A DNA stretch of 51,898 bases from Candidatus Kaiserbacteria bacterium (lineage in GTDB: Bacteria; Patescibacteriota; Minisyncoccia; Phycocordibacterales; UBA2100): the NCBI GenBank assembly GCA_963767115.1, contig CAVYCR010000002.1:1-51898 (forward strand), written 5' to 3'. Position 1 is the stretch's first letter. Every line of letters starts with the position of its first letter. A model generated the notes under the pieces. That model was given only the letters and a program-made list of their open reading frames with translations, had not been told where the DNA came from and did not search any database. The translations under genes were made by a program, and so were the position numbers. This document shows positions 3,644-18,016 of the stretch, in pieces.

Positions 3644-4556
3644 ATGTCTACAAATACTTACAAAAATGTTTTATTAGTTGGTGGTACTGGTGAATTGGGA
3701 AATATATTCTTCCAGCTCTTCTTGCTGATTCGTCCTTCAATGTTACTGTTCTTTCTCGTGTTAATTCAAATGCAACATTTCCATCAAATGTTAAAGTAAT
3801 CAAAGTCGATTATTCAGATAACAATGCAATTACGAAAGCACTTGTTGGTCAAGATGTGGTTATTTCTGCCATTGGTGGTGAAGGTATTAGTCGATGATTT
3901 TGGTATAACTTTATTGAAGCTGCTATTGAAGCAGGTGTAAAATGGTTTATTCCATCTGAATTTGGTGGTGATATTGATCATCCAATTTGTGCAACTATTC
4001 CACTTTATGTCTCCAAAGTTAGATGTTCTAAGTTATTAAAAAAAAATCAATCACGTATTAGCACATACATTTATTACAACTGGTGGTTTTCTTGATTGGG
4101 GTTTTGATAATGGTTTTCTTGGCTTTGATATTCCTAATCGTACAGTTACACTTTATGATGAAGGAAAACGCGTATATCAGGTACAACTCTTCCAAAATTG
4201 GTAAAGCTGTTGTCGCTATTATTCATCATCCAGAATTAACCTTAAACAAACGAATTTATATTGCAGATACAACATTTACACAACAAGAAGCTTTAGCTCT
4301 CTTTGAAAAATACACGAATACCAAATGGACAGTGAAACATGTCTCCGCGAAGGACAAACAAAAAGAAGCAACTGAAAAATTAGCGCAAGGAAATATTGGA
4401 GAAGCTCTGGTTGATTATGTAAAATTTTTATCACACGGTGGTTCACATGTATTTATGCTGGAAGGTAGAACAATCAACAAAGACTTAGGATTATCAACGA
4501 CATCGTTAGACCAAATTATTAAAGAAGCAGTAAAACGAACAAATCCTGCTCAATAA
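3644..4556 (+). CDS. NmrA-like / isoflavone-reductase family NAD(P)-dependent reductase, intronless, several 1-nt frameshifts
   Basis: MSTNTYKNVLLVGGTGELG (Rossmann GxxGxxG), then VTVLSR, KVDY, GQDVVISAIG, AGVKWFIPSEFG, TGGFLDW spread over shifting frames. Confidence 0.85.
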
Positions 4557-4897
4557 TAATCTTTTTTCCCACAAAAAGTCGTTCTCATCTTTTTATGTAC
4601 ATTATTTAATCGACAAATAAAAAATTATTGTAAGTTAAATAAATTATTCGATGATGCTCTAAGTTATAAGATATTTTTGAATTTATTCATAATCAATTTT
4701 CATTGAAAAGTGTATATAAGGAAAAAAAAGAAATATCTGTGTGCTCTGCATCTTTTAATGCATATGCGTTATCATCATGTGCTTGCTAAAGAAAGTCGAG
4801 TCTTCTTTTCAAAAACTAAAAGAGTAATATAAAAAGATAAAACAGATTCTTTATCACAACAGTTTTCTTTTAATAATATTAGATAAAAATAAAAAAG

Positions 4898-5143
4898 ATG
4901 TGTTGCAGAAGAATTATTTTTGGTACTTTAATTATTCTTACAATTGGTGTCTTTGTAGCACAAATCGCTTTTGGTGTCCATTACCTTCACAATCCACCTG
5001 CATGTGATCGAGTGAAATTTCTTACGATAGCAATTTTGGTTGGCGGTTGCAGTGGTGCGGCATCAATTGTATCTCTTGTATGTTACTGCTATAATTGTGG
5101 ATGTGGGTTGATGTCATCAAAAACTGATCAATCAAGTGCTTGA
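4898..5143 (+). CDS. Small protein with two hydrophobic segments (eukaryotic, unknown function)
   Basis: 81-aa ORF with two TM-like stretches and a Cys-rich C-terminus; A-rich context before the ATG. Confidence 0.5.
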   Translation: MCCRRIIFGTLIILTIGVFVAQIAFGVHYLHNPPACDRVKFLTIAILVGGCSGAASIVSLVCYCYNCGCGLMSSKTDQSSA

Positions 5144-5662
5144 ATATGCAAATCTAGTTCAAAACTAAGCTATTAAAATAACTGTTTTTTTAAAGGAAGT
5201 ACTGGTCCATTTTGTGACTTTTTTAAGTGAATCAACTATATAAATATGTTCTTCATTATTTTTTATGATTTCTAAGATGATATTCGGACTTTTTAAATAT
5301 TTTACTCATGCGCAAATTTCAAGATGTCCATATCATAAGACTTTGTTTTAATATTAAGGTCGTTATTTCGTCACGAAAATAGAAAAAGCAAAAAAATCAA
5401 GACGAATACTGTCGTAATACATTCACGTGTTAATGTTCTGTTTTTGTTTTGATGATACTATCATAGAGTGTCGTATAGCCGATATAATGTCCTTCATCTC
5501 AAGAATGCCTGTGTGCGACGGATATACTTCAGTGATTTTCAACGAGAAAAATCGCTTTTTTTCACAATTTTTTTGTACATCATTCCTACGTGCAGGAGAG
5601 AGAAATTACGCCTATAAATATTCGCGACAAACGTCGAGCTTGCTACAGATCAAATTACGATC

Positions 5663-5812
5663 ATGGCTAACACTTACTTTATGCTACGTCTGACTTTTCT
5701 TTTGCTTTTGTTAGTTACAATCGCCATAGCATGGAGTGCCGAAAGTTCTGAAGAGACCGACGATCATTTCGAAAAGCGCAAATTGATGAACATTCTTTTA
5801 CAAAAGAGGTAG
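5663..5812 (+). CDS. Small secreted prepropeptide (neuropeptide-precursor-like), possibly with a further exon
   Basis: MANTYFMLRLTFLLLLLVTIAIAWSA signal peptide, acidic spacer ESSEETDDHFE, then KR-KLMNILLQ-KR. TATAAA at 5613-5618; possible donor AG|GTAG at 5808/5809. Too short for the supplied ORF track. Confidence 0.6.
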   Translation: MANTYFMLRLTFLLLLLVTIAIAWSAESSEETDDHFEKRKLMNILLQKR

Positions 5813-6240
5813 AATTGTTCATTTCCTGCGTGATCTTCGATTATAGCATGAATTAGGATAATCGTGTACGAATTGATTAAATACCAGAAAAGAGCTAAAG
5901 AGTACAAGTTCAAGCTAGAATTCTTCATTTGTCATGTGATCTTCGGTCATAGTCAGAACTTGATACACCTATTATATCAGGTTACAACAGTTGATGAGAG
6001 CTAAATTGTCTAAAACTGATTATTTTCCATGAGATCATTGATTATGATACTAGTCGGCGTATCTATTTTTGAAATGATAACATAGTTGAAGAGACTCCAC
6101 TGCAAAAATATTCATTTGCTACATCAACTTCGATTATAGTACAAAACTAGTGTATCTGTGCTAGAAAATACATAACATTCGACGAGAGCTAGGGTGTGAA
6201 ATTGTTCATTTATCGTGTAATGTTTCGACTATAGTATCAA
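5813..6240. repeat. Degenerate tandem repeat, period about 95-105 bp, about 5 units
   Basis: aattgttcattt...tgatcttcgattatag-like blocks start near 5813, 5919, 6017, 6107 and 6200. Confidence 0.6.
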
Positions 6241-6822
6241 ATCAATATGTTTGTTTCGAAAAAAGTGATAGGAGAAGAGAATCCATTTACAAATAGTGGA
6301 TTTTCTTTAGATTGCCGCTGAATAGGTATTTTTTCTTAATACAAACTATTTCAACAGCGAACACTACCTTATGGTATCATCTTGAACTACATGTTTTTTT
6401 TATTAAGAAAATTTCTTTTTTTTTTATTAACTTTGTATAGTTTAGTTTTACTAATAAATAAAGCTTTGATTTGTGTTGATAGAAATCATGAATTTGGTTG
6501 AGCTGAAGATATCAATAAGGACTATCGTCTCTTATTTTAATCGATTGACTCATTAAATTGAAACAAAACAAATGAAGCGTGACGGTTAACTTTTTTTTAT
6601 CTTCTTACCTTTTTCTCACGACAGATGGCAGTTGGTTTTTATTTCAAGATTAAATTAATAAATAAGAAAATATAGATTATCTTGTATTTTAAATAATTAT
6701 AATTTATCAAAAATGAAATAAAAAATCCGATTGGTTTAATTATCAATATCCAATCAAATTTTTTCGTTAGATAAGATTCCTTTTACCCAAAAGAGATATA
6801 TTGTTATTTGTTAGAAAACAAT

Positions 6823-7359
6823 ATGTTTTCTCGTTTAACTCTATTTCGCCAACAATTAACAACAATAAATTCATACCGGAATTTATCATTTAAACAAATA
6901 AATGAATTAAAACCGATTCTTAGTCGAAATCTTGCTTGGTTCTCTGGAAAATCAACCAAACAAACTTCGGGTTTGTGAGAATTGTTTTTAAATTTAACTC
7001 CTTAAGAATTTCTTTATATAAAATTGTACATATCTTATGATATGATACATGGAGTTAAAGAACAGAAGGTCATCGAGTGCATTATCGCGAAGATATTGAA
7101 TGAATACGTTAAATTTGTATTGTTTTTAATAGGTGGAAGATTAAAACGACGTTTAGAAATATCATTCTAATTAGTGTCATTGGTTTTGGTACAATCTCTA
7201 TTTATGGTAAATATCGTCGATATCGATGGTTCCATGAGATGGATGATTCTGATAAGACTATTGGTACTAAACCACGTATTATCGTTCTTGGAACAGGTAA
7301 AGAATAGATTAATTATTTATATTTATTTGAATAATATTAAATAGGTTGGGGTGCTGTGC
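6823..7359 (+). CDS. Mitochondrial type II (alternative) NADH dehydrogenase, first three exons, truncated at the junction
   Basis: Arg/Ser/Leu-rich presequence MFSRLTLFRQQ...; GT-AG introns 6971-7132 and 7297-7344. Spliced product reads KPRIIVLGTG-WGAV, the first Rossmann motif of the Nde1/Ndi1 family. One probable 1-nt indel near 7152. Confidence 0.85.
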
Positions 7360-8674
<1,315 letters not shown>

Positions 8675-8840
8675 GCGTACTTTACGTTTTGTGTCTTTTA
8701 AGTCCCATGCCAATTTCTCAGCATAGGATTCCTGCATCTCGCTCCGGAGACGTAACCGGAAACGAGAAGTTTGATTCTTGTTGTACCACGCCATAATCAG
8801 CCTAGGGCTGATGACGGCGGGTTTGTAATGTCGTTATTCG

Positions 8841-9005: not shown

Positions 9006-9034
9006 AGTATAGACGAATGGTTCCGGTATGTCAA
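9006..9034 (-). promoter_or_regulatory. Sigma70 promoter upstream of 23S
   Basis: TTGACA (9034-9029), 17-nt spacer, TATACT (9011-9006). Confidence 0.85.
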
Positions 9035-9055: not shown

Positions 9056-9076
9056 TGCAGAGGTCTGACCTCTGCA
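9056..9076. repeat. RAYT-associated palindrome, dispersed copy
   Basis: TGCAGAGGTC-T-GACCTCTGCA with perfect 10-bp arms; same core as the copies flanking the transposase at 17.2-18.0 kb. Confidence 0.85.
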
Positions 9077-9193
9077 AAAGGCAGCATTTAAGCGGCAAAT
9101 TCAGCGTTTTTTCAGGTGCCACGGGCCGAGGCGACGCCTTCGGACAGGCGCCTGAATATATGGAAAAGTATGGAAAACGAGGAGGAATGCAGC

Positions 9194-9883
9194 TTACTCC
9201 TCGTGCGCGATCTCAGAACGTACGTGTTCTATCATGCGTGCCGCTGCGTCGCGGCCGCCGAGACCGAAGGCAAGGCCGAGCGCGAGCGAGACCGCGATCA
9301 CGAAGCCGGTAAAAAGCGTTTCGATGAACTGCGCGCCGATGCCGAGCTGCGTGAGGATCGTCATGATCGCGAAGATCCAGATAGCCCATTTGGCGATGGA
9401 GCCGCTCAGGTTACCGTGCGTGCTTCCCGCGGCGCGCGCAGAGCCCGCGACCACGCGCTTGACTACTTCGGCCACAAAGGCGGCGAGGATCAGGATGAGT
9501 ACCGCGACGATCACATGCGGCAAGTAGAGCAGGACGATTTGCTCTATGAAGACTGTCACCGTCGTGAGGCTGAGTATCTGGAGCGAGGCCGCGAGGAAGG
9601 CGAGCATCACAAACCACATCACAAGAGAGCCGAGGAACTTGCCCGTGTTGAGTTTGAAGCCGGCTTCCTTGACCGCGTCGGCGACACCGGCTGATTTCAT
9701 CACGTCGTCGATGCGCAAGATTTTTACTAATTCAACAATGAGACGGTAGAGAATGACGCCGATGATCCAGCCGACGATGAAGACAATGATCGCGGCGATG
9801 ATGGCAGGCACGTAGAGGAGCACGATGTACCACAGATCAGCGAATGAACCTTGCACGGCACCGGCGGATTGAGAGACGATCAT
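9194..9883 (-). CDS. Membrane protein with repeated conserved TM helix (CmpX / small mechanosensitive channel-like)
   Basis: Two YxPxxIxAxxI repeats; ends ALGLAFGLGGRDAA. Confidence 0.85.
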   Translation of the reverse strand: MIVSQSAGAVQGSFADLWYIVLLYVPAIIAAIIVFIVGWIIGVILYRLIVELVKILRIDDVMKSAGVADAVKEAGFKLNTGKFLGSLVMWFVMLAFLAASLQILSLTTVTVFIEQIVLLYLPHVIVAVLILILAAFVAEVVKRVVAGSARAAGSTHGNLSGSIAKWAIWIFAIMTILTQLGIGAQFIETLFTGFVIAVSLALGLAFGLGGRDAAARMIEHVRSEIAHEE

Positions 9884-9998
9884 AAAATAAAATAGTGTGT
9901 TAATAAGGCCTCTGACCTTCTTTAATATTCAAATGATACATCACCCACAAGGGACTATGTGAGTCTGATGCGTATGATTGTGGATACCGTTGTTTTAG

Positions 9999-10117
9999 AG
10001 GCTGTCCAAAAGACTTCATATACGAGGCGCGGGGAAATGAAATCAGGAGACGTACTTTTGTACGGTGACTGATTTCATGGGGCCCTGCAACGATGTAGAT
10101 GAGGCTTTTGGCAGTCT
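9999..10117. mobile_element. MITE-like long imperfect palindrome
   Basis: Ends aggctgtccaaaagacttcatatac / gtagatgaggcttttggcagtct; inner stems atgaaatcag/ctgatttcat and cgtac-tttt-gtacg; flanked by TTAG and CTAG. Confidence 0.6.
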
Positions 10118-10750
10118 CTAGAGCAGACGTGTACGGTCGATGAGTACGCGATGCGGGAAATCGAGCGTGTCGCGGATGAGACGGTCTTGGATCGTGAGGC
10201 GGTAGCGGAACTCAGGTGTGGAAAATGCGGCGTAGCGGATCTCCCGGCCAAAAATCAGCTCGAGGCCTTTGACGGCGCGTTCGAGCCGGCCCTGATTGAA
10301 GCTGTCGGCGGCAATGATGAGGTCGGCTGGTCTGGTGGCATCGCCCATGAAGTTGCCGGAGAGTACGACAGCAGCGAGCTTCCCTGTGCCGCGCAAGGCG
10401 TTGGTCACCGCTTCGAACTGTGCCGGCGAGATCTCGTGGACGAAGGAAGCTATCGCGCGCGCATGCGGGAAATCCGCATCGACAAACCACACCGTCTGCG
10501 GCTTGCTCACCTTCTTGATCTTCGTCTTGCTGGTTGCGACCTGACTCTCGGGAAGTACTTTCTTGCTGCGCACGATGCCGAGCTTCTCGAGCACCTTGAT
10601 CTCACGCGACGCAACGGCAGGCGAGATACCGGCGCGCTTCCCGAGGAGCGCCGAGGTGAATACCTCATCCTCGTTCAAGACGAAGACGCGCAATACGCGA
10701 GCACGTGCAGGGTTGCCGATGAGGTCTGCGAGAAAGTCTTTCTGTTTCAT
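10118..10750 (-). CDS. HTH protein with C-terminal nucleotidyltransferase-like fold (conserved CPR type)
   Basis: N-terminal wHTH (ARVLRVF...ISPAVASREIKVLEKLGIV); C-terminal LSGNF...ADLII...GREIRY. Confidence 0.75.
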   Translation of the reverse strand: MKQKDFLADLIGNPARARVLRVFVLNEDEVFTSALLGKRAGISPAVASREIKVLEKLGIVRSKKVLPESQVATSKTKIKKVSKPQTVWFVDADFPHARAIASFVHEISPAQFEAVTNALRGTGKLAAVVLSGNFMGDATRPADLIIAADSFNQGRLERAVKGLELIFGREIRYAAFSTPEFRYRLTIQDRLIRDTLDFPHRVLIDRTRLL

Positions 10751-10786
10751 ACGAGCATGATAGCACGATATCTGGGAGTCACTATG

Positions 10787-10813
10787 AAAAACGCCGCGTC
10801 AGACGCGGCGTTT
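10787..10813 (-). terminator. Terminator after rplL
   Basis: AAACGCCGCGTC-T-GACGCGGCGTTTTT on the minus strand. Confidence 0.8.
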
Positions 10814-10839
10814 CCCATTTTGGAAGCTTTTGGCTGTAG

Positions 10840-11262
10840 TTATTTGAGCGTAACCTTGCCACCCGCTTCCTCGATCTTCTTCTTCCAAGCTTCGGCGTCC
10901 TCCTTCTTGACGGCCGGCTTGAGCATAGCCGGCGCACTCTCGACGAGTGCCTTCGACTCAGCAAGTCCGAGCGCGAGGATTTCCTTGACCACCTTGATCA
11001 CGGCGATCTTCTGCTCGCCTACTGCAGTAAGCTCGACATCGAACTCTGCCTTGTCTTCGGCGCCGCCTGCTGCACCTCCCGCTGCAGGGCCCGCGACGGC
11101 AACTGCCGCAGCCGAGACGCCCCACTTCTTCTCGAGCGTCTTCACGAGCTCGTTCGCCTCGAGGATGGTGAGCTTCTCCATCTCTTCGACGATCGACTTG
11201 AACTTCGCCGGTACTTCGACCACCTCGGTCGCCTGCGTTTCTACTGCTGTATCTTCTGCCAT
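10840..11262 (-). CDS. rplL: 50S ribosomal protein bL12 (L7/L12)
   Basis: [23 protein letters not shown]...[25 protein letters not shown]...GGKVTLK. Confidence 0.98.
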
Positions 11263-11287
11263 AGTGATTGTAATGAATGATTATTAA

Positions 11288-11788
11288 TTACTGCATCTTT
11301 TGTGCATGCTGATCCAATACGACTGCGAGGCGCGCGAGCGGCGAATTGATGAGATTTACCAGCTTGCCACGCAAAACAGTGAGAGACGGGATCTCTGCGA
11401 TCTCGTTCATCGAAGCCGCGTCCATCAGCTTGCCTTCGAAAAGGCCGCCGACGATCGTGAGCTTGTTGGCCCCCATGTCTTTGCCAAACTTGAAGATGCG
11501 GCTCGCCGGCAATGTCGGGTCTTCCGACCCTGCGTTGTAAGCGATCGCGAGCTCCCCTTCCATCGGCACACTGCTGTGGTCGTGCCCGAGATTGTTGAGC
11601 GCGCGGCCGACCAAGGTCTTCTTGGCAACGGTATATCCGAGGCCGTCGGCGCGGAAGGCGCGACGCATCTTGGTCTCGTCAGCGACCGAGACGCCCTTGA
11701 AGTGGACGAACACGGTCGAGGAAGCGCCCTTCAAAGCATCCTCGATCTTCGCGACGATCTCTTTCTTTTGTTCTTTTGTCTTTGCCAT
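11288..11788 (-). CDS. rplJ: 50S ribosomal protein uL10
   Basis: MAKTKEQKKEIV...VAKKTLVGRAL...IPSLTVLRGKLVNLINSP; directly upstream of rplL. Confidence 0.97.
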   Translation of the reverse strand: MAKTKEQKKEIVAKIEDALKGASSTVFVHFKGVSVADETKMRRAFRADGLGYTVAKKTLVGRALNNLGHDHSSVPMEGELAIAYNAGSEDPTLPASRIFKFGKDMGANKLTIVGGLFEGKLMDAASMNEIAEIPSLTVLRGKLVNLINSPLARLAVVLDQHAQKMQ

Positions 11789-11848
11789 TGTGGTGAAAAA
11801 CAACGTCTCCTAAAACAAGGCGTCAGCCTAGGGCTGACAAGAGTGTTC

Positions 11849-11936
11849 GACCTCAGCAAGCTCGTCCCGCGAAGTCAGCTTTGGGCTGACGGAGTGGGAT
11901 CTGATTGAAACCTTTCGGTACCCGCTTTCTCTGGCC
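11849..11936 (-). promoter_or_regulatory. L10 leader (rplJL autoregulatory RNA)
   Basis: GGCC-AGAGA-AAGCGGGU...UUCAAU...GCUUGCU-GA-GGUC kink-turn-like stem between the promoter and rplJ. Confidence 0.75.
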
Positions 11937-11947
11937 TTGTGGGGTGC

Positions 11948-12009
11948 ATAGTAGCCTGCATGCATTGAGACGTCAACTTTTTGACATACCATCACTACGG
12001 CAGTAGATT
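11948..12009. promoter_or_regulatory. Back-to-back sigma70 promoters (rplJL on minus; CtrA-like gene on plus)
   Basis: Minus: TTGACG (11976-11971)-17-TACTAT (11953-11948). Plus: TTGACA (11981-11986)-17-TAGATT (12004-12009). Confidence 0.8.
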
Positions 12010-12071
12010 GGCCTGAGTGATGTTCATTAGATTCAATCATCGGACATCGGACCCAAACACGGAGGGATCCC

Positions 12072-12437
12072 ATGGATGCTTTGTTGGACAGAGACCCGGC
12101 TATAGTAGAGCCAGTCATCGTCACCGGCAACCTCGTCGTCGACATGACCCACAGGATCGTCAAGATCGACGATGTACGCGTGCATCTTACCCCGACAGAA
12201 TACAAGATACTTAAGCTTTTCAGCTTGCGTAAGGGCATAACACTCTCCAAGAGCGTCATCTTCGCACATCTATACGATGAGGACGTCAAACGAGACCCGA
12301 AGATTATCGGTGTGTTCATCTGCAAGCTACGCAAGAAACTCACCACGGCCTCCAGGGGGACAAACTATATCGATACAATATTTCTTCGTGGCTATATCTT
12401 GCGCGACCCACCAGCACAAGAAGCCACCTACGGATGA
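12072..12437 (+). CDS. Stand-alone OmpR/PhoB-type winged-helix domain, CtrA-like, no receiver domain
   Basis: VHLTPTEYKILKLFSLRKGITLSK...HLY...KIIGVFICKLRKKL...RGYILRDP follows the CtrA C-terminal signature; GGAGG at 12061-12065. Confidence 0.88.
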   Translation: MDALLDRDPAIVEPVIVTGNLVVDMTHRIVKIDDVRVHLTPTEYKILKLFSLRKGITLSKSVIFAHLYDEDVKRDPKIIGVFICKLRKKLTTASRGTNYIDTIFLRGYILRDPPAQEATYG

Positions 12438-12453
12438 AACCGACCGCCTCCCG

Positions 12454-12487
12454 AGGCGGCGCGAACCTCGCGCCGCCTTTCTTATTT
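12454..12487 (+). terminator. Terminator after the CtrA-like gene
   Basis: AGGCGGCGCGA-ACC-TCGCGCCGCCT then TTCTTATTT. Confidence 0.8.
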
Positions 12488-12577
12488 GAAACGGGATCCA
12501 AGTTTGACATACTGCACATACGTGTGTTATTATTGCTTCGGCAAATACCTGCTGAACCAAACCCTAGGGGGAATCCA

Positions 12578-12955
12578 ATGCAACAATGTATCGGCGGCGG
12601 CGAAGAATTCGTTGTAACACCTCCTTTCGGATCGCCCGAGGAATTGGCAATGCTGGAGGATGTGTTCCGCGTCCAAACTGAGACACTCGCCCAAGACGAC
12701 CGGATAATGTTGACCGGCTGTATGCTGGCAACCCTCAACGCCTCACCGACGAAAGTCGCCCAAAACAAGCTTAAGGGAGCGCTTTTGGAGAAGCTTCTCG
12801 TCGCAGTGCATGAGTATAACCCTGGGCTTTACGAGTCCTTCGTATTGTTCCTTCGCGACAAGACGGCATTCAACGAAACGCTGGGCCAAGAGGCTCACTG
12901 GATAGATGCGACGGCAGCGGAAATCGGTCTGATCATTTTGGGTTTGCGTCCATGA
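12578..12955 (+). CDS. Hypothetical protein (orphan, monocistronic)
   Basis: Own promoter TTGACA 12504-12509 / TGnTATTAT 12525-12533, purine-rich RBS, terminator hairpin 12962-12986. Start moved from 12434, which lies before the upstream terminator. Confidence 0.65.
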   Translation: MQQCIGGGEEFVVTPPFGSPEELAMLEDVFRVQTETLAQDDRIMLTGCMLATLNASPTKVAQNKLKGALLEKLLVAVHEYNPGLYESFVLFLRDKTAFNETLGQEAHWIDATAAEIGLIILGLRP

Positions 12956-13011
12956 AACAGGAGCGCCGAGACGATGTCTCGGCGCTTTTACTTTGCACTA
13001 TTTTTATAGTT

Positions 13012-13170
13012 CTACTTGAGCATCTGGGCGAGGGCCGCAGCGGCGGCCTGCTGCTTGGTCTCGCCGAGGCCGAAGTGCGTGACGGCAAGCGTGAGCCCGA
13101 AGCTCACCCCGATAAAGGTCATAAACCCCGCGGCAAATTTCAAAAACGATCCCGTCGGCGTCGGCTGCAT
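13012..13170 (-). CDS. Small single-TM protein
   Basis: MQPTPTGSFLKFAAGFMTFIGVSFGLTLAV...; TACAAT 6 nt before the ATG. Confidence 0.6.
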   Translation of the reverse strand: MQPTPTGSFLKFAAGFMTFIGVSFGLTLAVTHFGLGETKQQAAAAALAQMLK

Positions 13171-13208
13171 GTCACTATTGTATACCCTCTCCAATAATGC
13201 CGCGATGG

Positions 13209-13640
13209 CTATGTGTTTTTCTTACCCATGCGCCAAATCCGCCAATATTTCCAGATTATGACTATTGCGCTCACCAGATCAATGAGCCATACCATGCGTT
13301 CGGTGACTTGCGTACGGTCCAATAAATAGAAGGTGATTCCTTGATATTCGTATGGTGTATTAATAATTATAAATAGCGCAATGATCGCAAGGGGCAAAAT
13401 CACTTTCCACCATGCATTGAAAACTTCTCTTCTGACAAAAATAACTATCAGACATAGGGGTAGCAACCACGGGAGTCCCCAATATAAAGGTTCACCAACT
13501 CCGATATATGTAGAATAATCGAGACAATAGACTTGGTTGCCGCAGATACCGATAATCCACGAATGAAAAATTAGATACTGCGCTGCCATTCCTACAATGA
13601 CCAGAATTAGGAGAATTATTCCAAATAATCGATGATTCAT
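13209..13640 (-). CDS. Four-TM membrane protein translationally coupled to the upstream lipase (candidate immunity protein)
   Basis: Four hydrophobic segments; ATGA overlap with the lipase stop; low GC. Confidence 0.75.
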   Translation of the reverse strand: MNHRLFGIILLILVIVGMAAQYLIFHSWIIGICGNQVYCLDYSTYIGVGEPLYWGLPWLLPLCLIVIFVRREVFNAWWKVILPLAIIALFIIINTPYEYQGITFYLLDRTQVTERMVWLIDLVSAIVIIWKYWRIWRMGKKNT

Positions 13641-16255
13641 ATTTTTGTATTTATCAACACCTTCAATTCCTCAATCATATCAAGTAATTGACTCGCTTCC
13701 GCAGAGGTGATCTTTTCAACCTGAGGAGGTTTCTTGGGTAGTGGCTTGGTATTTTCATTCTCGATATAGGCCTCGATTCGATTAAGTTTTCGTATAATCT
13801 TATCTTTGAGCCTATCATTCGAATTATCCGCACTGTCGTCATCATCGGTGTCCCATTTCGTATCCTTAGTGATCAAATATCCAACATTGACAAACTTGGC
13901 TTCTAGTCGCAATTTGACGAGCGAACCCATATCCATTCCAAGAATCGTTGTGCCGATCAGCTTCGTATATGAGAGCGGGTCGGTCGTCTGCGTAGAAGAG
14001 GCGATTACTATATCGACCTTACCATCGCCGTCTTCGTCTACTGCAAGCGCTGTCGAAGCTAGATTCGATGCATTGACTTGTATGGTAGCAGTCGACGATG
14101 CAGTCACTGGCACACCAGCAAAACTAATTGTGCTCTGTGCGACGCCGCTAACGACCGGCGTCACCTCGAAGGTAAAAGTGCCCGTCCCCGTGCCATGCAA
14201 AACGACTTTGTAATTATTACTATCGTCGGGAAGTCCTATATACTGTCCTTCGCCATATTGACGATAGTAACTATTAGGAATCTGCTCTTGTACATATAGA
14301 TCATCAGACTGCGGGTTGGGATTCGGGATCATACCCGTATGATTTCCAAGACTGTCATATGCGTCTAAGGTGACTGGCGAGAGCACGCGGAGGCGTAAGG
14401 TCTTACTTAACAATGTTGGAGTTGGTTCAGTGGTAGTTACGTACTGGGGTAATACACCAACCGAGCTAGACGATAAAATGCTTGCAAACAAGGTCTGAAA
14501 AACGGACGTCTCTGTAACATCTTTATGGCCGAGATTGGTCTTAAAGAATTCATTATATTTCGGTAAATTTATGTAATAGCTTTGCCAACTAGTTGTAGCT
14601 ATTTGACTTGGTACCACCACGGTATCGTCCCCATCTTCAGTGATATTCATTGCATGGCGCGTAGTTGTTGAGATCGAGCAGCCAACAGCATTACAAGTCG
14701 ATATATTTTCTTCTTGGTACGTAACTCCTGACGGCGTATCGAGACCCCAGCCCGCTATCTGGATTACTTGCACACCCACTGGAGGTGTCCATGAATCGAG
14801 ATCGGAATGGAGGGCAGTCGCACTTGATAATAATGCGGACGAAAGCAAATCCGGCGTCTCGATATCGCCCGCAGCGGGCTTGGTGCGGCCTGAGGTGAGG
14901 AACTTGCCTAGATCATTCGCATTCGTGATGAGGCTCGGCACATTGCCCGCGTCTTTGAGATCGGGATCGAGGGTGAGATCGACCACCGGCGATGCGACAC
15001 GCACGAAATAATCGCTTGAAGGGAGGAGATCGTAGGCATCGGGCATATTTTCTGCTAAGCCCCGCATGGTCTGCTGCGATACGACGAACCCAGGCAACGG
15101 ATCGTAGTCGCCATGGAGCATCGCTGCGATCGCCATCGGCGTGCCGTCCTGCGGTACGTCCACAAGTATTACTTTATCGACAAGGTTGGCCTTGCCCTCC
15201 TGCTGCAGCTTGATCATCAATGCCTTCGCGACAAGGCCGCCGTTGGAGTGCGCCACTATCGTGACCTTCCCTGTTTTCGAGGTCGACGCCAGCGCGATCA
15301 ATGCTTGGTCGATGAAATGAGTGCCGTCGTCATACGGCGTGCCGTCGTTGACGACATCTTCGGGCGATTGCCGCCAATCGTACGGGAACGCAAGATAGTC
15401 GTAGATCGTGCTGCTTGCCTTGAGACCCGCAAGCTGCGCCAGGAATGATTGATAGATGCTTGTTTCGTCAAAAGGTACGCCCACCTGATCAATCGTTGCA
15501 CCGGTCTTCGTGTATACAGCGTTAATACTGGTACCGTTCGGATTCAGATACATTGCCTTTGCGTCTTGTTGCAAACTGCTGATCCACGGCTCCCAGAGCT
15601 GCAGTTCGATACCGACTGTCTTTTCATAGAGGCGACTGCCTTCAAGACCGGGAATGAAAAGGACGTTCGAATCGCAACCACTAACACAGGACGTAGGCGC
15701 GGACGGCACAGCACAACCGTTTTCGCATATCTCGAGAAAGGGTGTTGTGCCCGAGGCGCCCACCCAATGATCTGCGGTATACCCTGAATAGCTTGGGTCC
15801 AAGAAGGCCCACATTTCATTTCCCATATGCACTGTCTCGCCGGGGTTTGTCGGTATCGAATATTCGGTGAGGCTCGTCGTCGCCGTCACAGCGAGCGGAT
15901 AATAATTACCGGGTGAAGCAACTAAATGCGCCGTAGTAGTCCCGGTACCATAAAAAGGATCTCCACCAGAAGTGGCTTGCAAAATGACATCAAGGACATT
16001 GCCTGTGCCTCCGTTCCATTGAGCCAGGAGGTGCAGAGTAGTTGAGACATCGGTTGTAAAATCCTGACCGCTCCACGTACCGAGGAAGACGCTTGGATTG
16101 TCATTGAGACCGAACCATGAGTGCGTCGATGTAGGCGTGTACACTTGTAAACTGTCCGGACCGGATGAGGCGGATTGCCAGACTACTTCTGCGTTGGAAA
16201 TGTGTGGCGACATAAGTATAAACGTGAGGACTGATGCGACGAGTAAAATACGCAT
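13637..16255 (-). CDS. Large secreted LCAT/PGAP1-like alpha/beta hydrolase (phospholipase/acyltransferase)
   Basis: Signal peptide MRILLVASVLTFILMSPHISNA; VLFIPGLEGS, FPYDWR, IVAHSNGGL nucleophile elbow, DGDDTV, Ca-binding-like DEDGDGKVD. The ORF is open up to 16351. Confidence 0.88.
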   Translation of the reverse strand: MRILLVASVLTFILMSPHISNAEVVWQSASSGPDSLQVYTPTSTHSWFGLNDNPSVFLGTWSGQDFTTDVSTTLHLLAQWNGGTGNVLDVILQATSGGDPFYGTGTTTAHLVASPGNYYPLAVTATTSLTEYSIPTNPGETVHMGNEMWAFLDPSYSGYTADHWVGASGTTPFLEICENGCAVPSAPTSCVSGCDSNVLFIPGLEGSRLYEKTVGIELQLWEPWISSLQQDAKAMYLNPNGTSINAVYTKTGATIDQVGVPFDETSIYQSFLAQLAGLKASSTIYDYLAFPYDWRQSPEDVVNDGTPYDDGTHFIDQALIALASTSKTGKVTIVAHSNGGLVAKALMIKLQQEGKANLVDKVILVDVPQDGTPMAIAAMLHGDYDPLPGFVVSQQTMRGLAENMPDAYDLLPSSDYFVRVASPVVDLTLDPDLKDAGNVPSLITNANDLGKFLTSGRTKPAAGDIETPDLLSSALLSSATALHSDLDSWTPPVGVQVIQIAGWGLDTPSGVTYQEENISTCNAVGCSISTTTRHAMNITEDGDDTVVVPSQIATTSWQSYYINLPKYNEFFKTNLGHKDVTETSVFQTLFASILSSSSVGVLPQYVTTTEPTPTLLSKTLRLRVLSPVTLDAYDSLGNHTGMIPNPNPQSDDLYVQEQIPNSYYRQYGEGQYIGLPDDSNNYKVVLHGTGTGTFTFEVTPVVSGVAQSTISFAGVPVTASSTATIQVNASNLASTALAVDEDGDGKVDIVIASSTQTTDPLSYTKLIGTTILGMDMGSLVKLRLEAKFVNVGYLITKDTKWDTDDDDSADNSNDRLKDKIIRKLNRIEAYIENENTKPLPKKPPQVEKITSAEASQLLDMIEELKVLINTKI

Positions 16256-16366
16256 CGCATCAGCCTTACGCGCATATGCGCTAGACCCCTTAGCACGTCC
16301 GCAAGACCCCTTTGCGTCCTTCATATGCACGATCAGTATGACACTGTACATGAAGTCTTCATTAAG

Positions 16367-16375
16367 TTATCCACA
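16367..16375 (+). promoter_or_regulatory. Consensus DnaA box
   Basis: TTATCCACA in a divergent intergenic region. Confidence 0.45.
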
Positions 16376-16384
16376 TATTCATTA

Positions 16385-16403
16385 CATAGGTCTGACCTCT
16401 GCA
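16385..16403. repeat. RAYT-associated palindrome, one mismatch in the left arm
   Basis: CATAGGTC-T-GACCTCTGCA. Confidence 0.75.
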
Positions 16404-16453
16404 AACAGGATCAAAACTTGGCTCTTTTGTTGAGTTTTTGGTATGCTGGAGCG

Positions 16454-17164
16454 ATGAGTACACATGATCGCACTTCAATTATCGTCGGGATTATCATCGT
16501 AATCGTTCTCGTCCTCGGCTTTCTGGCTTGGCAGGAACGTGCAGGCACGCAAGCCTCTATCCCCTCTACTGCTACGACTACCAGCGCTACCTCGAGCTCG
16601 GGCGGCAACGTAATCAGTATTTCGCCCAGCGGAAAGGTCACCGGGCCGGCCGGTTATACCATCACAGAGATTCCTGTCGGTTCGGACGCTCCGCAGGCGC
16701 CCAACTACAAAGCACCCCTCGTCTTCGCGAGCACTGTGCCGGCTGACCAACAGGCACAACTGCAGCAAGCATTTGCTGCCGCGCAGGCGACGATCACGAA
16801 GAGCCCGCAGGATTTCAATTCATGGATAGAGCTAGGGCTTGTACGCAAAGAAGCCGGCGACTACACCGGTGCGGCTGCCGACTGGCAATACATGTCAGCG
16901 CTCTACCCTACCAACGTGGTCTCCAACGCAAACCTCGGCGACCTGTATACCAACTACCTGCCGAATTACCCGAAAGCAGCAGCAGCCTTCAAGGCGCAGA
17001 TCGCCAACGATCCCACTGACGAATACATCTATATCGACCTCTATGATCTCTACACTACCCACTACCCACAGAGCAGTTCGACGATCGTAGCGCTCCTCAA
17101 GCAGGGGCTTGCGGCGGTCCCTGGCGACGCACAGCTCTCGGCCCTGCTCGCGAAATATCAGTAG
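16454..17164 (+). CDS. Membrane-anchored TPR-repeat protein
   Basis: N-terminal TM, Ser/Thr linker, TPR-like SWIELGLVRKEAGDYTGAAADW and NLGDLYTNY; TATGCT 6 nt before the ATG. Confidence 0.8.
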   Translation: MSTHDRTSIIVGIIIVIVLVLGFLAWQERAGTQASIPSTATTTSATSSSGGNVISISPSGKVTGPAGYTITEIPVGSDAPQAPNYKAPLVFASTVPADQQAQLQQAFAAAQATITKSPQDFNSWIELGLVRKEAGDYTGAAADWQYMSALYPTNVVSNANLGDLYTNYLPNYPKAAAAFKAQIANDPTDEYIYIDLYDLYTTHYPQSSSTIVALLKQGLAAVPGDAQLSALLAKYQ

Positions 17165-17208
17165 CGCACTCGTGGACACACTCGCTGTGTAAGTACTCTT
17201 TTGCACTT

Positions 17209-17258
17209 TTGCAGAGGTCAGACCTCTGCAATCTTTTCCACAGAGGTCTGACCTCTGT
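17209..17258. repeat. REP-like palindrome doublet upstream of the RAYT (inverted pair)
   Basis: TTGCAGAGGTC-A-GACCTCTGCAA (17209-17231) and ACAGAGGTC-T-GACCTCTGT (17240-17258). Confidence 0.9.
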
Positions 17259-17293
17259 ATTCCTTCATATGAACGCCGGTATATACTGCGTAC

Positions 17294-17977
17294 ATGCATC
17301 GGAGGGGTCAGATGCGTGCTCTCGATGGGCACCACTATCATATTTTCAACCGTGGCGCACATGAGTACCCTGTTTTTGCAAGTGACGACGATTATAAAAG
17401 GTTCCAGATTCTTCTATACCTGCTCAACACGCACTCCCCTGTCACGGTACGCAACGTGCTTGCGCGATACCAAGAGACAAAAGTGGAGCGGGTGTTTATA
17501 GACGAGTACTGCGACCAGTCACTTGTCGATATACTCGCCTACACGCTCCTACCCAACCATTTCCATTTGGTCTTGCGCGAAAAGGCTGAGGACGGCGTAG
17601 CTCTTTTCATGCAGAAGGTGTGCACTGCCTATTCTATGTATTTCAATACAATGCATGACCATCGCGGCACACTCTGGGAGGGACGGTATAAGTCGCGGCC
17701 GATCGCGAACGAATCGTATCTCAAATACATCTTTGCTTATGTCCACCTCAATGTACTCGATCTCAAAGAGAATCGACGGAAAGACTTTGGCATAAAAGAT
17801 ACGAGAGCTTCACGCGCATTTGTCGCTTCGTATCCGTATTCGAGCTACTACGACTATTACGTGGGAGGCCGGCCGGAGAGGGTCATCTTGTGCGCAACAA
17901 ATCTGCGCGATTTTCTGCGGCAAAACGATTTTGAGGAACTGGCCGCTTGGCAATCAGCCGGCCGCGCAGAGGTCTGA
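17294..17977 (+). mobile_element. REP-associated tyrosine transposase (RAYT, Y1 HUH family)
   Basis: YHIFNRG, YTLLPNHFHLVL (HUH), YFN...GTLWEGRYKS, YVHLN (catalytic Tyr), YPYSSY; palindromes on both sides; no tnpB. Confidence 0.92.
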
Positions 17978-18016
17978 CCTCTGTACCACACGACTACCGA
18001 GGTCTGACCTCTGCAA
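17966..18016. repeat. REP-like palindrome doublet downstream of the RAYT; supplies its TGA stop
   Basis: GCAGAGGTC-T-GACCTCTGT (17966-17984) and GAGGTC-T-GACCTCTGCAA (17999-18016). Confidence 0.9.

Follow-up and report, generated by a model that had tools for sequence, protein, structure and literature searches.

The 51,898-nt stretch of Candidatus Kaiserbacteria bacterium analysed here (contig CAVYCR010000002.1 of assembly GCA_963767115.1; "the window" in the following) is contig C2 of the genome studied (G000; 1.03 Mb on 12 contigs, C1-C12) and carries a gene for a Y1 HUH nuclease with doublets of a short palindrome on both of its sides. We consider this arrangement, with a probability of about 0.8, to be a REPtron-like unit, i.e., a single-stranded DNA (ssDNA) nuclease/ligase of the domesticated-transposase type that resembles the tyrosine transposases associated with repetitive extragenic palindromes (REP; the transposases are termed RAYT) or the related TIRYT proteins, together with its cognate dispersed palindrome. 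This reading builds on the fold and the catalytic motifs of the protein, on the cognate palindromes that flank its gene, on their dispersal, on the specificity of palindromes for species and paralogue, and on their presence or absence at orthologous sites.

A Y1 HUH nuclease gene and its palindrome

We searched the window for palindrome copies by repeat finding and with the pattern AGAGGTCWGACCTCT allowing for at most two mismatches. With W denoting A or T, exactly six copies of CAGAGGTC-W-GACCTCTG were found (17-nt cores at 9058-9074, 16385-16401 with one mismatch, 17212-17228, 17241-17257, 17967-17983 and 17997-18013 with one mismatch) and none in the remaining 43 kb. By chance, 0.04 copies are expected, and none of 100 shuffles reached six. 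The arms comprise 8-11 bp, are perfect and enclose a single central A or T. Doublets with start-to-start spacings of 29 and 30 nt are found on both sides of the Y1 open reading frame (ORF), while two copies are single. One of these is located in the 104-nt spacer between a lipase-like gene (start 16351, minus strand) and a gene with tetratricopeptide repeats (TPR), the other is centred on 9066, i.e., 22 nt upstream of a promoter-like site that matches 11 of 12 consensus positions and faces the 23S rRNA gene (match 7256-8640, minus strand). When folded as ssDNA, the single copies show a stem of 9-10 bp closed by a 3-nt loop (free energy -9 to -10 kcal/mol, z between -5 and -7) and each doublet forms one long hairpin (-17 to -20 kcal/mol), i.e., -20.1 kcal/mol with z -9.0 for the upstream and -17.1 kcal/mol for the downstream doublet. 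No Rfam family matches the palindromes. Respective coordinates are listed in Table 1.

For the nuclease gene (paralogue A), an alternative ATG is present at 17294, but the start at 17312 is likelier because GGAGG is found six bases ahead (17301-17305). Its stop codon TGA (17975-17977) is the centre of the palindrome copy 17967-17983, such that the repeat supplies the last three codons (AEV) plus the stop. In the C-terminal alignment, orthologues terminate a few residues earlier, near ...GR. These results agree in each point with the original prediction, which had claimed six copies within 9 kb with arms around a single A/T, a Y1 HUH gene between doublets one of which gives the stop codon, and single copies at 16385 and 9056.

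Gene A is RAYT-like and not IS200-like, which was also part of that prediction and is based here on NCBIfam score, sequence motifs, predicted fold and tree. The NCBIfam model REP_Tyr_transpos scores paralogue A with 38.9 bits, about double the 19.4 bits of the IS200 model. The HuH motif is NHFH (residues 82-85), and all of the 27 homologues share H83, H85, Y143 and N147; the same alignment shows H10, R14, N82, F99, N112, G119 and S178 to be invariant, too. NP is present in most homologues, the IS200 signature Y-x3-Q in none. A profile of the 27 homologues finds the E. coli TnpA-REP structure 4er8 in the PDB with an E-value of 0.0035 and the ISDra2 TnpA with 0.21, while a phmmer search with the single protein A against the PDB sequences provides no match at E-values up to 1. 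The AlphaFold2 model of A (pLDDT 90.5, pTM 0.89) has 4er8_A as its top Foldseek match (E 5.8e-6, TM 0.45/0.58), followed by the transposases of ISDra2, IS608 and IS200.

The same separation is observed in a quick maximum likelihood tree, where a branch of length 2.34 (SH-aLRT 100) parts the IS200 group from all 47 other rows. The IS200 group consists of two TnpA references and the 104-aa IS200-like fragment of the studied genome, and the 47 rows include A, its paralogues, the E. coli RayT and three plasmid 'transposases'; two loci (L016 and L012) were left out of the trees as duplicates. Rooting within the RAYT side is unreliable, and the branch of the E. coli RayT is very long (3.66). With regard to plasmid records, tblastn reports 13 for A (weak, none covering 80% of A) compared to 977 for the IS200-like fragment.

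In the whole genome, palindrome A has 24 sites with at most one mismatch, while the reversed control pattern has none. Six of the 24, i.e., a quarter, are found in the 9-kb stretch around the gene. Hairpins also occur beyond the element ends, since 20 of the 24 sites are away from gene A. The consensus of the 24 copies from position -10 to +10 reads Y R C A G A G G T C W G A C C T C T G Y A, which gives a 21-nt unit YR-CAGAGGTC-W-GACCTCTG-YA; a further candidate at C5:53472 was left out of family A since it is without the flanks. Ten copies form five doublets, four of them spaced by 29-30 nt and one by 55 nt, and the doublet spacers show only a loose likeness. According to a crude ORF-based gene map (86% coding), 15 of the 24 copies are outside of any ORF of at least 90 aa, four are within ORFs that have no Pfam support or within 5' extensions before the likely start, one overlaps the Y1 stop, and four (two doublets) are in frame within murB and miaA. 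Two reading frames of the palindrome are open (QRSDLC and RG[LQ]TSA). The third encodes AEV-R-PL with a central A and AEV-stop with a central T, and in-gene copies read in this frame always have the central A, where T would give TGA.

The outer tetranucleotide of family A (-9 to -6) is GCAG in 16 and ACAG in eight of the 24 copies, is base-paired and is followed outwards by TT...AA flanks. That is, the GT[AG]G foot of canonical REPs is missing in family A. Beside this, the outer 5' positions are looser (-10: 14 T and 10 C; -9: 16 G and 8 A) than their 3' counterparts (+9: 20 C and 4 T; +10: 23 A and 1 G). All 14 asymmetric copies, spread over five contigs, are degenerate at -10/-9 and retain CA at +9/+10. 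Such a polarity is unexpected for a palindrome on arbitrarily oriented contigs, and for family A we found no relation of it to the direction of neighbouring genes, the centre base or GC skew. A replication-strand bias was not apparent either, i.e., |GC skew| is mostly below 0.04, and the centre base of family A does not clearly follow it.

Private palindromes in paralogues, relatives and orthologous sites

A genome search by tblastn and Pfam identified ten Y1-type loci that fall into three groups. Clade I comprises seven genes (A-G) of 225-268 aa, which are 30-40% identical to A and share the motifs NH[FYL]H, [WF][EQ]G, Y[IV]HLNP or variants thereof and a Y.Y[ST]S tail. The best identity among paralogues within the genome is 40%, i.e., near-identical duplicates are missing. 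Clade II consists of two genes with the motifs NHWH, YIERNP and WRWGS that group in the tree with the plasmid-borne 'transposases' and the E. coli RayT. The third group is the 104-aa fragment on contig C4, which is the only IS200-like sequence of the genome.

Each of the seven clade-I genes is adjoined by a palindrome of its own (families A-G in Table 1, counted with at most one mismatch to the core), while none was seen next to the two clade-II genes. Perfect copies on both flanks are found for A, B and C. Gene F shows a perfect copy on one flank plus one inside the gene, and for D, E and G the copy on the second flank has one or two mismatches or shorter arms. The copy within F is in frame, as is one copy of family D within gene D. 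The families also emerge from a blind count: among the 155 perfect 7+1+7 palindromes of the genome, which are of 101 kinds, the top five kinds are families A-E with 21, 10, 8, 7 and 7 copies. With regard to the foot, family E starts with GTAG, as does the palindrome of locus L078 in the relative G044, and that of L084 from the same genome starts with GTGG.

Two further observations concern the families' arrangement. At C1:13673-13757, copies of B, a C-like palindrome and A are adjacent within 85 nt and form a mosaic cluster like those of bacterial interspersed mosaic elements (BIME), after which a partial extra right arm of A is found. Furthermore, the asymmetric loop of family F (CGAAA/TTTCG) tends to follow the direction of the neighbouring gene (e.g., at C5:8627, 9387 and 28179; rough gene calls), which hints at a polarity versus transcription or replication.

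Homologues were detected in 22 of 24 sampled genomes of the same genus and in 10 of 16 genomes from other genera of the order (E<=0.001) as well as in 85 of 300 further genomes sampled across the phylum (profile search, E<=1e-20), with a maximum of 14 homologues per genome (G044). A related-locus search with the single protein A gave one relative, namely a 'Candidatus Paceibacterota' metagenome-assembled genome with 35% identity. We then counted loci for which the same perfect palindrome with arms of at least 7 nt is found on each side of the gene. This holds for 7 of 11 loci (L002-L012), for 11 of 14 loci in G044, for 4 of 10 in G001 and for 9 of 29 across the phylum, while it holds for none of 428 other genes of 150-300 aa from the studied genome. 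Only three of the latter's seven clade-I genes pass this strict automatic rule; the other four are masked by ORFs that were called too long and by copies with mismatches.

The relatives' palindromes are nearly all different. Most share the half-site RAGGTY beside the centre and differ further out. When 60 further species of the genus were searched, palindrome A itself had no site in 57. Three sites of CAGAGGTC-S-GACCTCTG occur in G352, two of them within and just after its orthologue of A (47% identical). Other orthologues of the A clade show the related repeat CACAGAGAAC-C-GTTCTCTGTG (G022), the imperfect form GCACAGAG-GTCGGTT-CTCTGTGC (G021 and G011) or AAGGAC-S-GTCCTT (G003 and G369). In general, related genes tend to have related palindromes (e.g., L084/L088, L094/L095 and L007/L008). 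In-gene copies are also found within nuclease homologues of relatives (L076, L081, L088, L115, L117, L130 and L142); such copies in nuclease genes precede the HuH motif.

Three genes enable a comparison of filled and empty orthologous sites. In miaA of the studied genome, ~18-20 extra residues (LSRRGLTSAKERAEVRPLRL) correspond to a doublet of family A, while 17 of 24 genus homologues have a short form with 40-44 aa over the same stretch (the alignment covered 16 of 25 loci at first and later 24). At the same place, G044 carries two abutting copies of GTGGAGGTC-W-GACCTCCAC, a palindrome identical to one that flanks its own paralogue L084; G001 carries two copies of CCAAGGTC-S-GACCTTGG, and G022 and G009 another palindromic pair. 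Six species share the short miaA linker type; in three of them the site is empty, and in the other three it is filled, each time with a different palindrome. The murB doublet (15 of 25 loci aligned) is located in a variable loop and adds net 7 aa compared to 13 of the 14 aligned homologues.

For the 23S rRNA, 29 genus sequences were aligned at the helix tip that holds the doublet of family C. A plain short hairpin is present in 18 of them, inverted doublets of four different palindromes with spacers of 5-8 nt in four (G000, G041, G365 and G021), an unrelated ~60-nt insert in five and other extras in two. If a doublet carries the palindrome of a resident paralogue, both should agree, which is exactly the case for miaA of G000 and of G044 and approximately for the 23S rRNA of G000. 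These alignments show that whole doublets are gained and lost at permissive hairpin tips or linkers, with an occupant that is specific for the species. The observed patterns are compatible with repeated independent insertion as well as with in-place replacement.

Two side observations were made for the rRNA region. The only match to the large subunit rRNA model in the assembly spans model positions 15-2044 within just 1,385 nt. Collinearity with the 23S rRNA of relatives ends near 7360, the relatives' next 750 nt match nothing in G000, and the ~2.8 kb that follow (window ~4550-7360) contain no ORF of at least 120 aa and no Rfam match. The 23S gene could be truncated or interrupted here, or the region could represent an assembly join. 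In addition, another palindrome, TCAGCC-TAG-GGCTGA, is found in the 23S leader (8797-8811) and twice just upstream of an rplJ-like L10 gene (11823-11837 and 11875-11889), while the rest of the genome contains only look-alikes with one mismatch. It may be a shared regulatory or processing site.

The neighbours of the Y1 gene are the TPR gene and a gene with a beta-lactamase fold; tnpB is not among them. The TPR gene probably starts at 16455, with GGAG 4 nt upstream. Its position between palindrome copies had led to the suggestion that it might be cargo, which we reject: the gene is single-copy in the genome, its adjacency to a Y1 gene is also found in G003 with a different palindrome, and most spacers near the Y1 gene contain palindromes anyway.

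Table 1. Genes, palindrome copies and palindrome families discussed in the text. Positions without contig name refer to the window.
Feature	Position or core	Strand	Remarks
RAYT-like Y1 HUH nuclease gene, paralogue A	17312..17977	+	221 aa; Pfam Y1_Tnp, E 8e-10
Upstream doublet of palindrome A	17210..17259	.	centres 17220 (A) and 17249 (T); 12-nt spacer
Downstream doublet of palindrome A	17965..18015	.	centres 17975 and 18005, both T
Single copy of palindrome A, 1 mismatch	16383..16403	.	divergent spacer between lipase-like and TPR genes
Single copy of palindrome A	9056..9076	.	centre 9066; ssDNA hairpin -9.2 kcal/mol
Family A doublet in miaA	C12:13615-13660		in frame
Family A doublet in murB	C3:1048-1093		in frame
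Family C doublet in 23S helix tip	8322..8361	.	within 69-nt insert, model positions ~283-290
Sigma-70-like promoter match	9006..9034	-	TTGACA at 9034, 17-nt spacer, TATACT ending 9006; consensus match only
TPR-repeat gene	16455..17164	+	weak TPR Pfam matches; between palindrome copies
Clade-II genes and IS200-like fragment	C3:221529-221876, C4:126-470, C4:5043-5279	-, +, +	
Family A	AGAGGTC-N-GACCTCT		25 copies, one of them doubtful
Family B	GAGAAAC-N-GTTTCTC		15 copies
Family C	CGAGGTT-N-AACCTCG		17 copies; cognate paralogue on contig C12
Family D	TGATGTC-N-GACATCA		17 copies
Family E	GACAATC-N-GATTGTC		11 copies
Family F	GAGCAAGG-N5-CCTTGCTC		14 copies
Family G	CCACYAGG-CAAGA-CCTRGTGG		2 copies

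Known systems and alternative explanations

Among the known systems that come closest is the REPtron (Nunvar 2010, PMC2817692; Bertels & Rainey 2011, PMC3116915; Messing 2012, PMC3479197, PDB 4er8), a RAYT/TnpA-REP gene flanked by REPs or by REP doublets (REPIN), e.g., rayT (b0228) in E. coli and in Pseudomonas. Common to both are the Y1 HUH fold, a gene flanked by its cognate dispersed and mostly intergenic hairpin repeat, several diverged gene/repeat pairs per genome with low paralogue identity, and doublets the two copies of which fold together into one long hairpin. In the relatives, the doublets in 23S rRNA and miaA are inverted pairs. Differences concern both partners. Family A is a perfect palindrome with a one-base centre and without a 5' GT[AG]G guide, the tip (RAGGTY) is conserved and the foot variable, and 24 copies are found instead of hundreds, while the protein is ~220-250 aa long and has a Y.YSSY tail and a score under the RayT model cut-off.

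The classification given in sections of PMC6006769 (Quentin et al. 2018) splits TnpA-Y1 proteins into IS200 (1.1) and RAYT-side subclasses, with Y-x3-NP as signature of class 2 and Y-x3-Q for IS200; canonical REPs are stated there to carry the 5' GT[AG]G at the foot of the hairpin. For subclass 2.1, the respective passages list NH[YF]H, FQ, Y[IV]HLNP, an SS tail and 238 aa. It equals group 1 of Bertels et al. and the TIRYT/TIRtron of Di Nocera et al. 2013, as far as the corresponding parts of PMC5581495 and PMC3733652 go. Our clade I resembles this subclass, i.e., it shares NH[YF]H, FQ or W[EQ], Y[IV]HLNP, a length of ~238 aa, the SS tail and the presence of several diverged copies per genome; this is a motif-level membership, given that our tree is without reference members of the subgroup. 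The plasmid 'transposase' stand-ins (Skermanella, P. aeruginosa and R. rubrum) group with clade II and not with clade I.

With regard to the repeats, the picture is different. While subclasses 2.1 and 2.3 are reported in the cited passages of PMC6006769 to be without REP-like sequences, every clade-I paralogue of the studied genome has its own repeat beside it. For group 1 RAYTs, the account in PMC5581495 (Bertels et al. 2017) has only modestly frequent flanking 16-mers. Of the TIRYT flanking repeats, some are portrayed in passages of PMC3733652 as wholly self-complementary and as members of moderately abundant families, with GGGGWSAS shared by many of the flanking repeats; REPs that provide a stop codon or are located within a gene are reported there as well. 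This motif of the terminal inverted repeats (TIR) agrees with the half-site of palindrome A, GAGGTCAG, in 7 of 8 positions, which we take as a lead only. In contrast to TIRYT, the flanks found here are self-complementary hairpin repeats that are dispersed and not only terminal inverted repeats.

Subclass 2.4 is associated with 'double-foot' REPs, which are also described in frame within tnpA-REP genes (passages of PMC6006769). Our repeats are likewise symmetric with a foot and its complement at both ends, and in-frame copies are found in the own nuclease gene as well as in unrelated genes. Nevertheless, the motifs of subclass 2.4 (NH[IFV]H, WQ and YIxNNP with GT[AG]G feet) differ from the proteins and most feet observed here, and the in-gene copies are located before HuH and not between HuH and Y. 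The original prediction had proposed a distinct class without the GTAG/GGAG or CGTC tail. The absence of the tail holds for family A, the foot of which is a paired GCAG/ACAG, but not for sister families that start with GTAG (E, L078) or GTGG (L084). Given these sister families and the double-foot REPs and self-complementary TIRYT repeats already in print (as the named passages of PMC6006769 and PMC3733652 document), we regard the system as a variant rather than as a wholly separate class.

IS200/IS605 elements (IS608, ISDra2) share the Y1 HUH fold, hairpins by the gene and a presumed single-strand mechanism with our system, from which they differ by identical copies, Y-x3-Q and tnpB as well as by their separate position in the tree. 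Rickettsia palindromic elements (RPE) are cited in part of PMC3733652 as being inserted in frame in protein genes. Similar to them, our palindromes are tolerated in frame in conserved genes (miaA, murB) at surface loops or linkers. They differ from RPEs by being 17-21-nt palindromes that occur in doublets and are tied to a Y1 gene. RPEs are longer and are not known to flank a cognate nuclease gene. In summary, the system joins features that were reported separately. Its proteins are 2.1-like, its hairpin repeats are fully symmetric but have no fixed GT[AG]G, some copies are located within genes, and each genome can hold many private pairs. A full-text literature search found no paper that links REPs or RAYTs with bacteria of the candidate phyla radiation (CPR), although supplements of RAYT papers may contain CPR members; the sole joint match concerned a KEGG K07491 gene beside an archaeal rbcL.

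Several results weigh against a REPtron-like unit. On the protein side, the 38.9 bits of paralogue A fall under the NCBIfam RayT cut-off of 80, its motif is Y-x3-NV (YVHLNV) and not Y-x3-NP, and paralogues B (YVMVKN) and E (YVVLKN) are also without NP. The motif signature of clade I moreover resembles that of a subclass for which no REPs are reported in the passages of PMC6006769. On the repeat side, 2-25 copies per family are far fewer than for classical REPs, and only three of the five family A doublets have complementary (inverted) centres. At the orthologous sites, the miaA doublet of G001 has no exact cognate among the ten homologue loci of that genome, the 23S doublet of G021 matches the nearest paralogue palindrome (four loci) in the core only, and the murB doublet is not a clean insertion since its net gain is small and its loop variable. 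A first test for co-variation of protein and palindrome based on loop-anchored arms was not significant (r 0.125, reached in 395 of 5000 permutations). When half-sites were anchored on the symmetry centre, by contrast, protein and palindrome did track each other, in favour of the unit, with a Spearman r of 0.36 (2 of 5000 permutations; 0 of 5000 for the nearest-neighbour statistic), where the metric was picked after the first result, even-loop palindromes were omitted (24 of 25 rows kept), and kin are not independent. Finally, the one public read run found (word share 0.08) covers the stretch with a single 293-nt contig (16042-16334) and none of its joints.

Three other explanations were considered. 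First, the Y1 proteins might no longer move the palindromes but be domesticated for a host task on hairpin DNA (cruciforms, fork hairpins), with palindromes that spread or change by slippage or gene conversion. The low copy numbers of 2-25 per family fit such a scenario, as does the treatment of RAYT genes as domesticated in parts of PMC5581495, and the different palindromes at the miaA and 23S sites across species could mean in-place replacement. Nonetheless, empty orthologous sites are the majority (17/24 for miaA, 18/29 for 23S), which implies that gains or losses of whole doublets occur, and identical 17-21-nt copies at 24 unrelated sites need a sequence-specific copying process. We therefore rate this explanation as improbable.

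Hardly better or worse fares the idea that the palindromes are selected host sites, i.e., operators of dimeric proteins, attenuators or mRNA-stability hairpins, such that the association with Y1 genes would be secondary, e.g., due to regulation. A perfect two-fold symmetry over 17-21 bp is typical of operators, one copy is located 22 nt upstream of a strong promoter-like site and another in a divergent promoter spacer, and the orientation of family F copies tends to agree with that of the genes beside them (rough gene calls). But positions in frame within miaA and murB or inside 23S rRNA are poor places for an operator, each of the seven paralogues has a private palindrome, and the sequences turn over fully between species of the genus while the arrangement persists. 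Typical terminators are not an option either, because the flanks are TT...AA and no T-run follows the stem.

The weakest explanation is an autonomous insertion sequence of the IS200/IS605 type with the hairpins as its ends and solo palindromes as remnants or footprints of past insertions, for which the Y1_Tnp domain, the hairpins on both sides and the fold common with the TnpA of IS608 and ISDra2 could be put forward, and which is nevertheless very unlikely in view of 24 palindrome A sites for one gene, no second copy of any paralogue (best intragenomic identity 40%), the motif Y-x3-N(P/V) instead of Y-x3-Q, a clade apart from the IS200 references, 13 versus 977 plasmid records and no tnpB neighbour.

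Proposed mechanism and implications

For the preferred reading, i.e., a RAYT/TIRYT-like nuclease with its cognate dispersed palindrome, a mechanism can be proposed by analogy to TnpA-REP and IS608 TnpA. The enzyme would bind the palindrome hairpin, cut beside it using Tyr143 and the HuH-bound metal, and rejoin the ends, such that single palindromes or inverted, REPIN-like doublets would reach further single-stranded sites by copying or by movement, with a gene that would remain single-copy. Seven such enzyme/palindrome pairs would run in parallel. Since they have the tip RAGGTY-N-RACCTY in common and differ in the outer stem, we propose that each paralogue would have a private substrate.

A broader generalization is tentative, and we consider it rather doubtful at present: CPR bacteria may harbour hyper-diversified hairpin-specific Y1 nucleases, with 7-14 paralogues per genome of ~1 Mb. 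Each of these would recognize a private palindrome in which the tip AGGTY-N-RACCT is conserved and the variable outer stem serves as address, and the inverted doublets would repeatedly colonise, or overwrite in place, the same permissive hairpin tips and linkers in essential genes and 23S rRNA. The latter would explain why the palindrome at an orthologous site differs from species to species. If true, this would be a naturally re-addressable system for ssDNA insertion, from which expansion segments of rRNA and loop insertions of proteins could arise in reduced genomes.

To our knowledge, work on RAYT/REP systems has dealt almost exclusively with Proteobacteria. The subclass of proteins that has the motifs observed here was published as repeat-less, while the link between enzyme and repeat is unusually clean in this genome. 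Seven private pairs in a 1-Mb genome, together with dozens in its relatives, provide a natural specificity series for the reading of hairpins by Y1 enzymes. The in-frame doublets of miaA and murB as well as the 23S doublet mean that such elements shape essential genes in genomes that are thought to be streamlined and repeat-poor.

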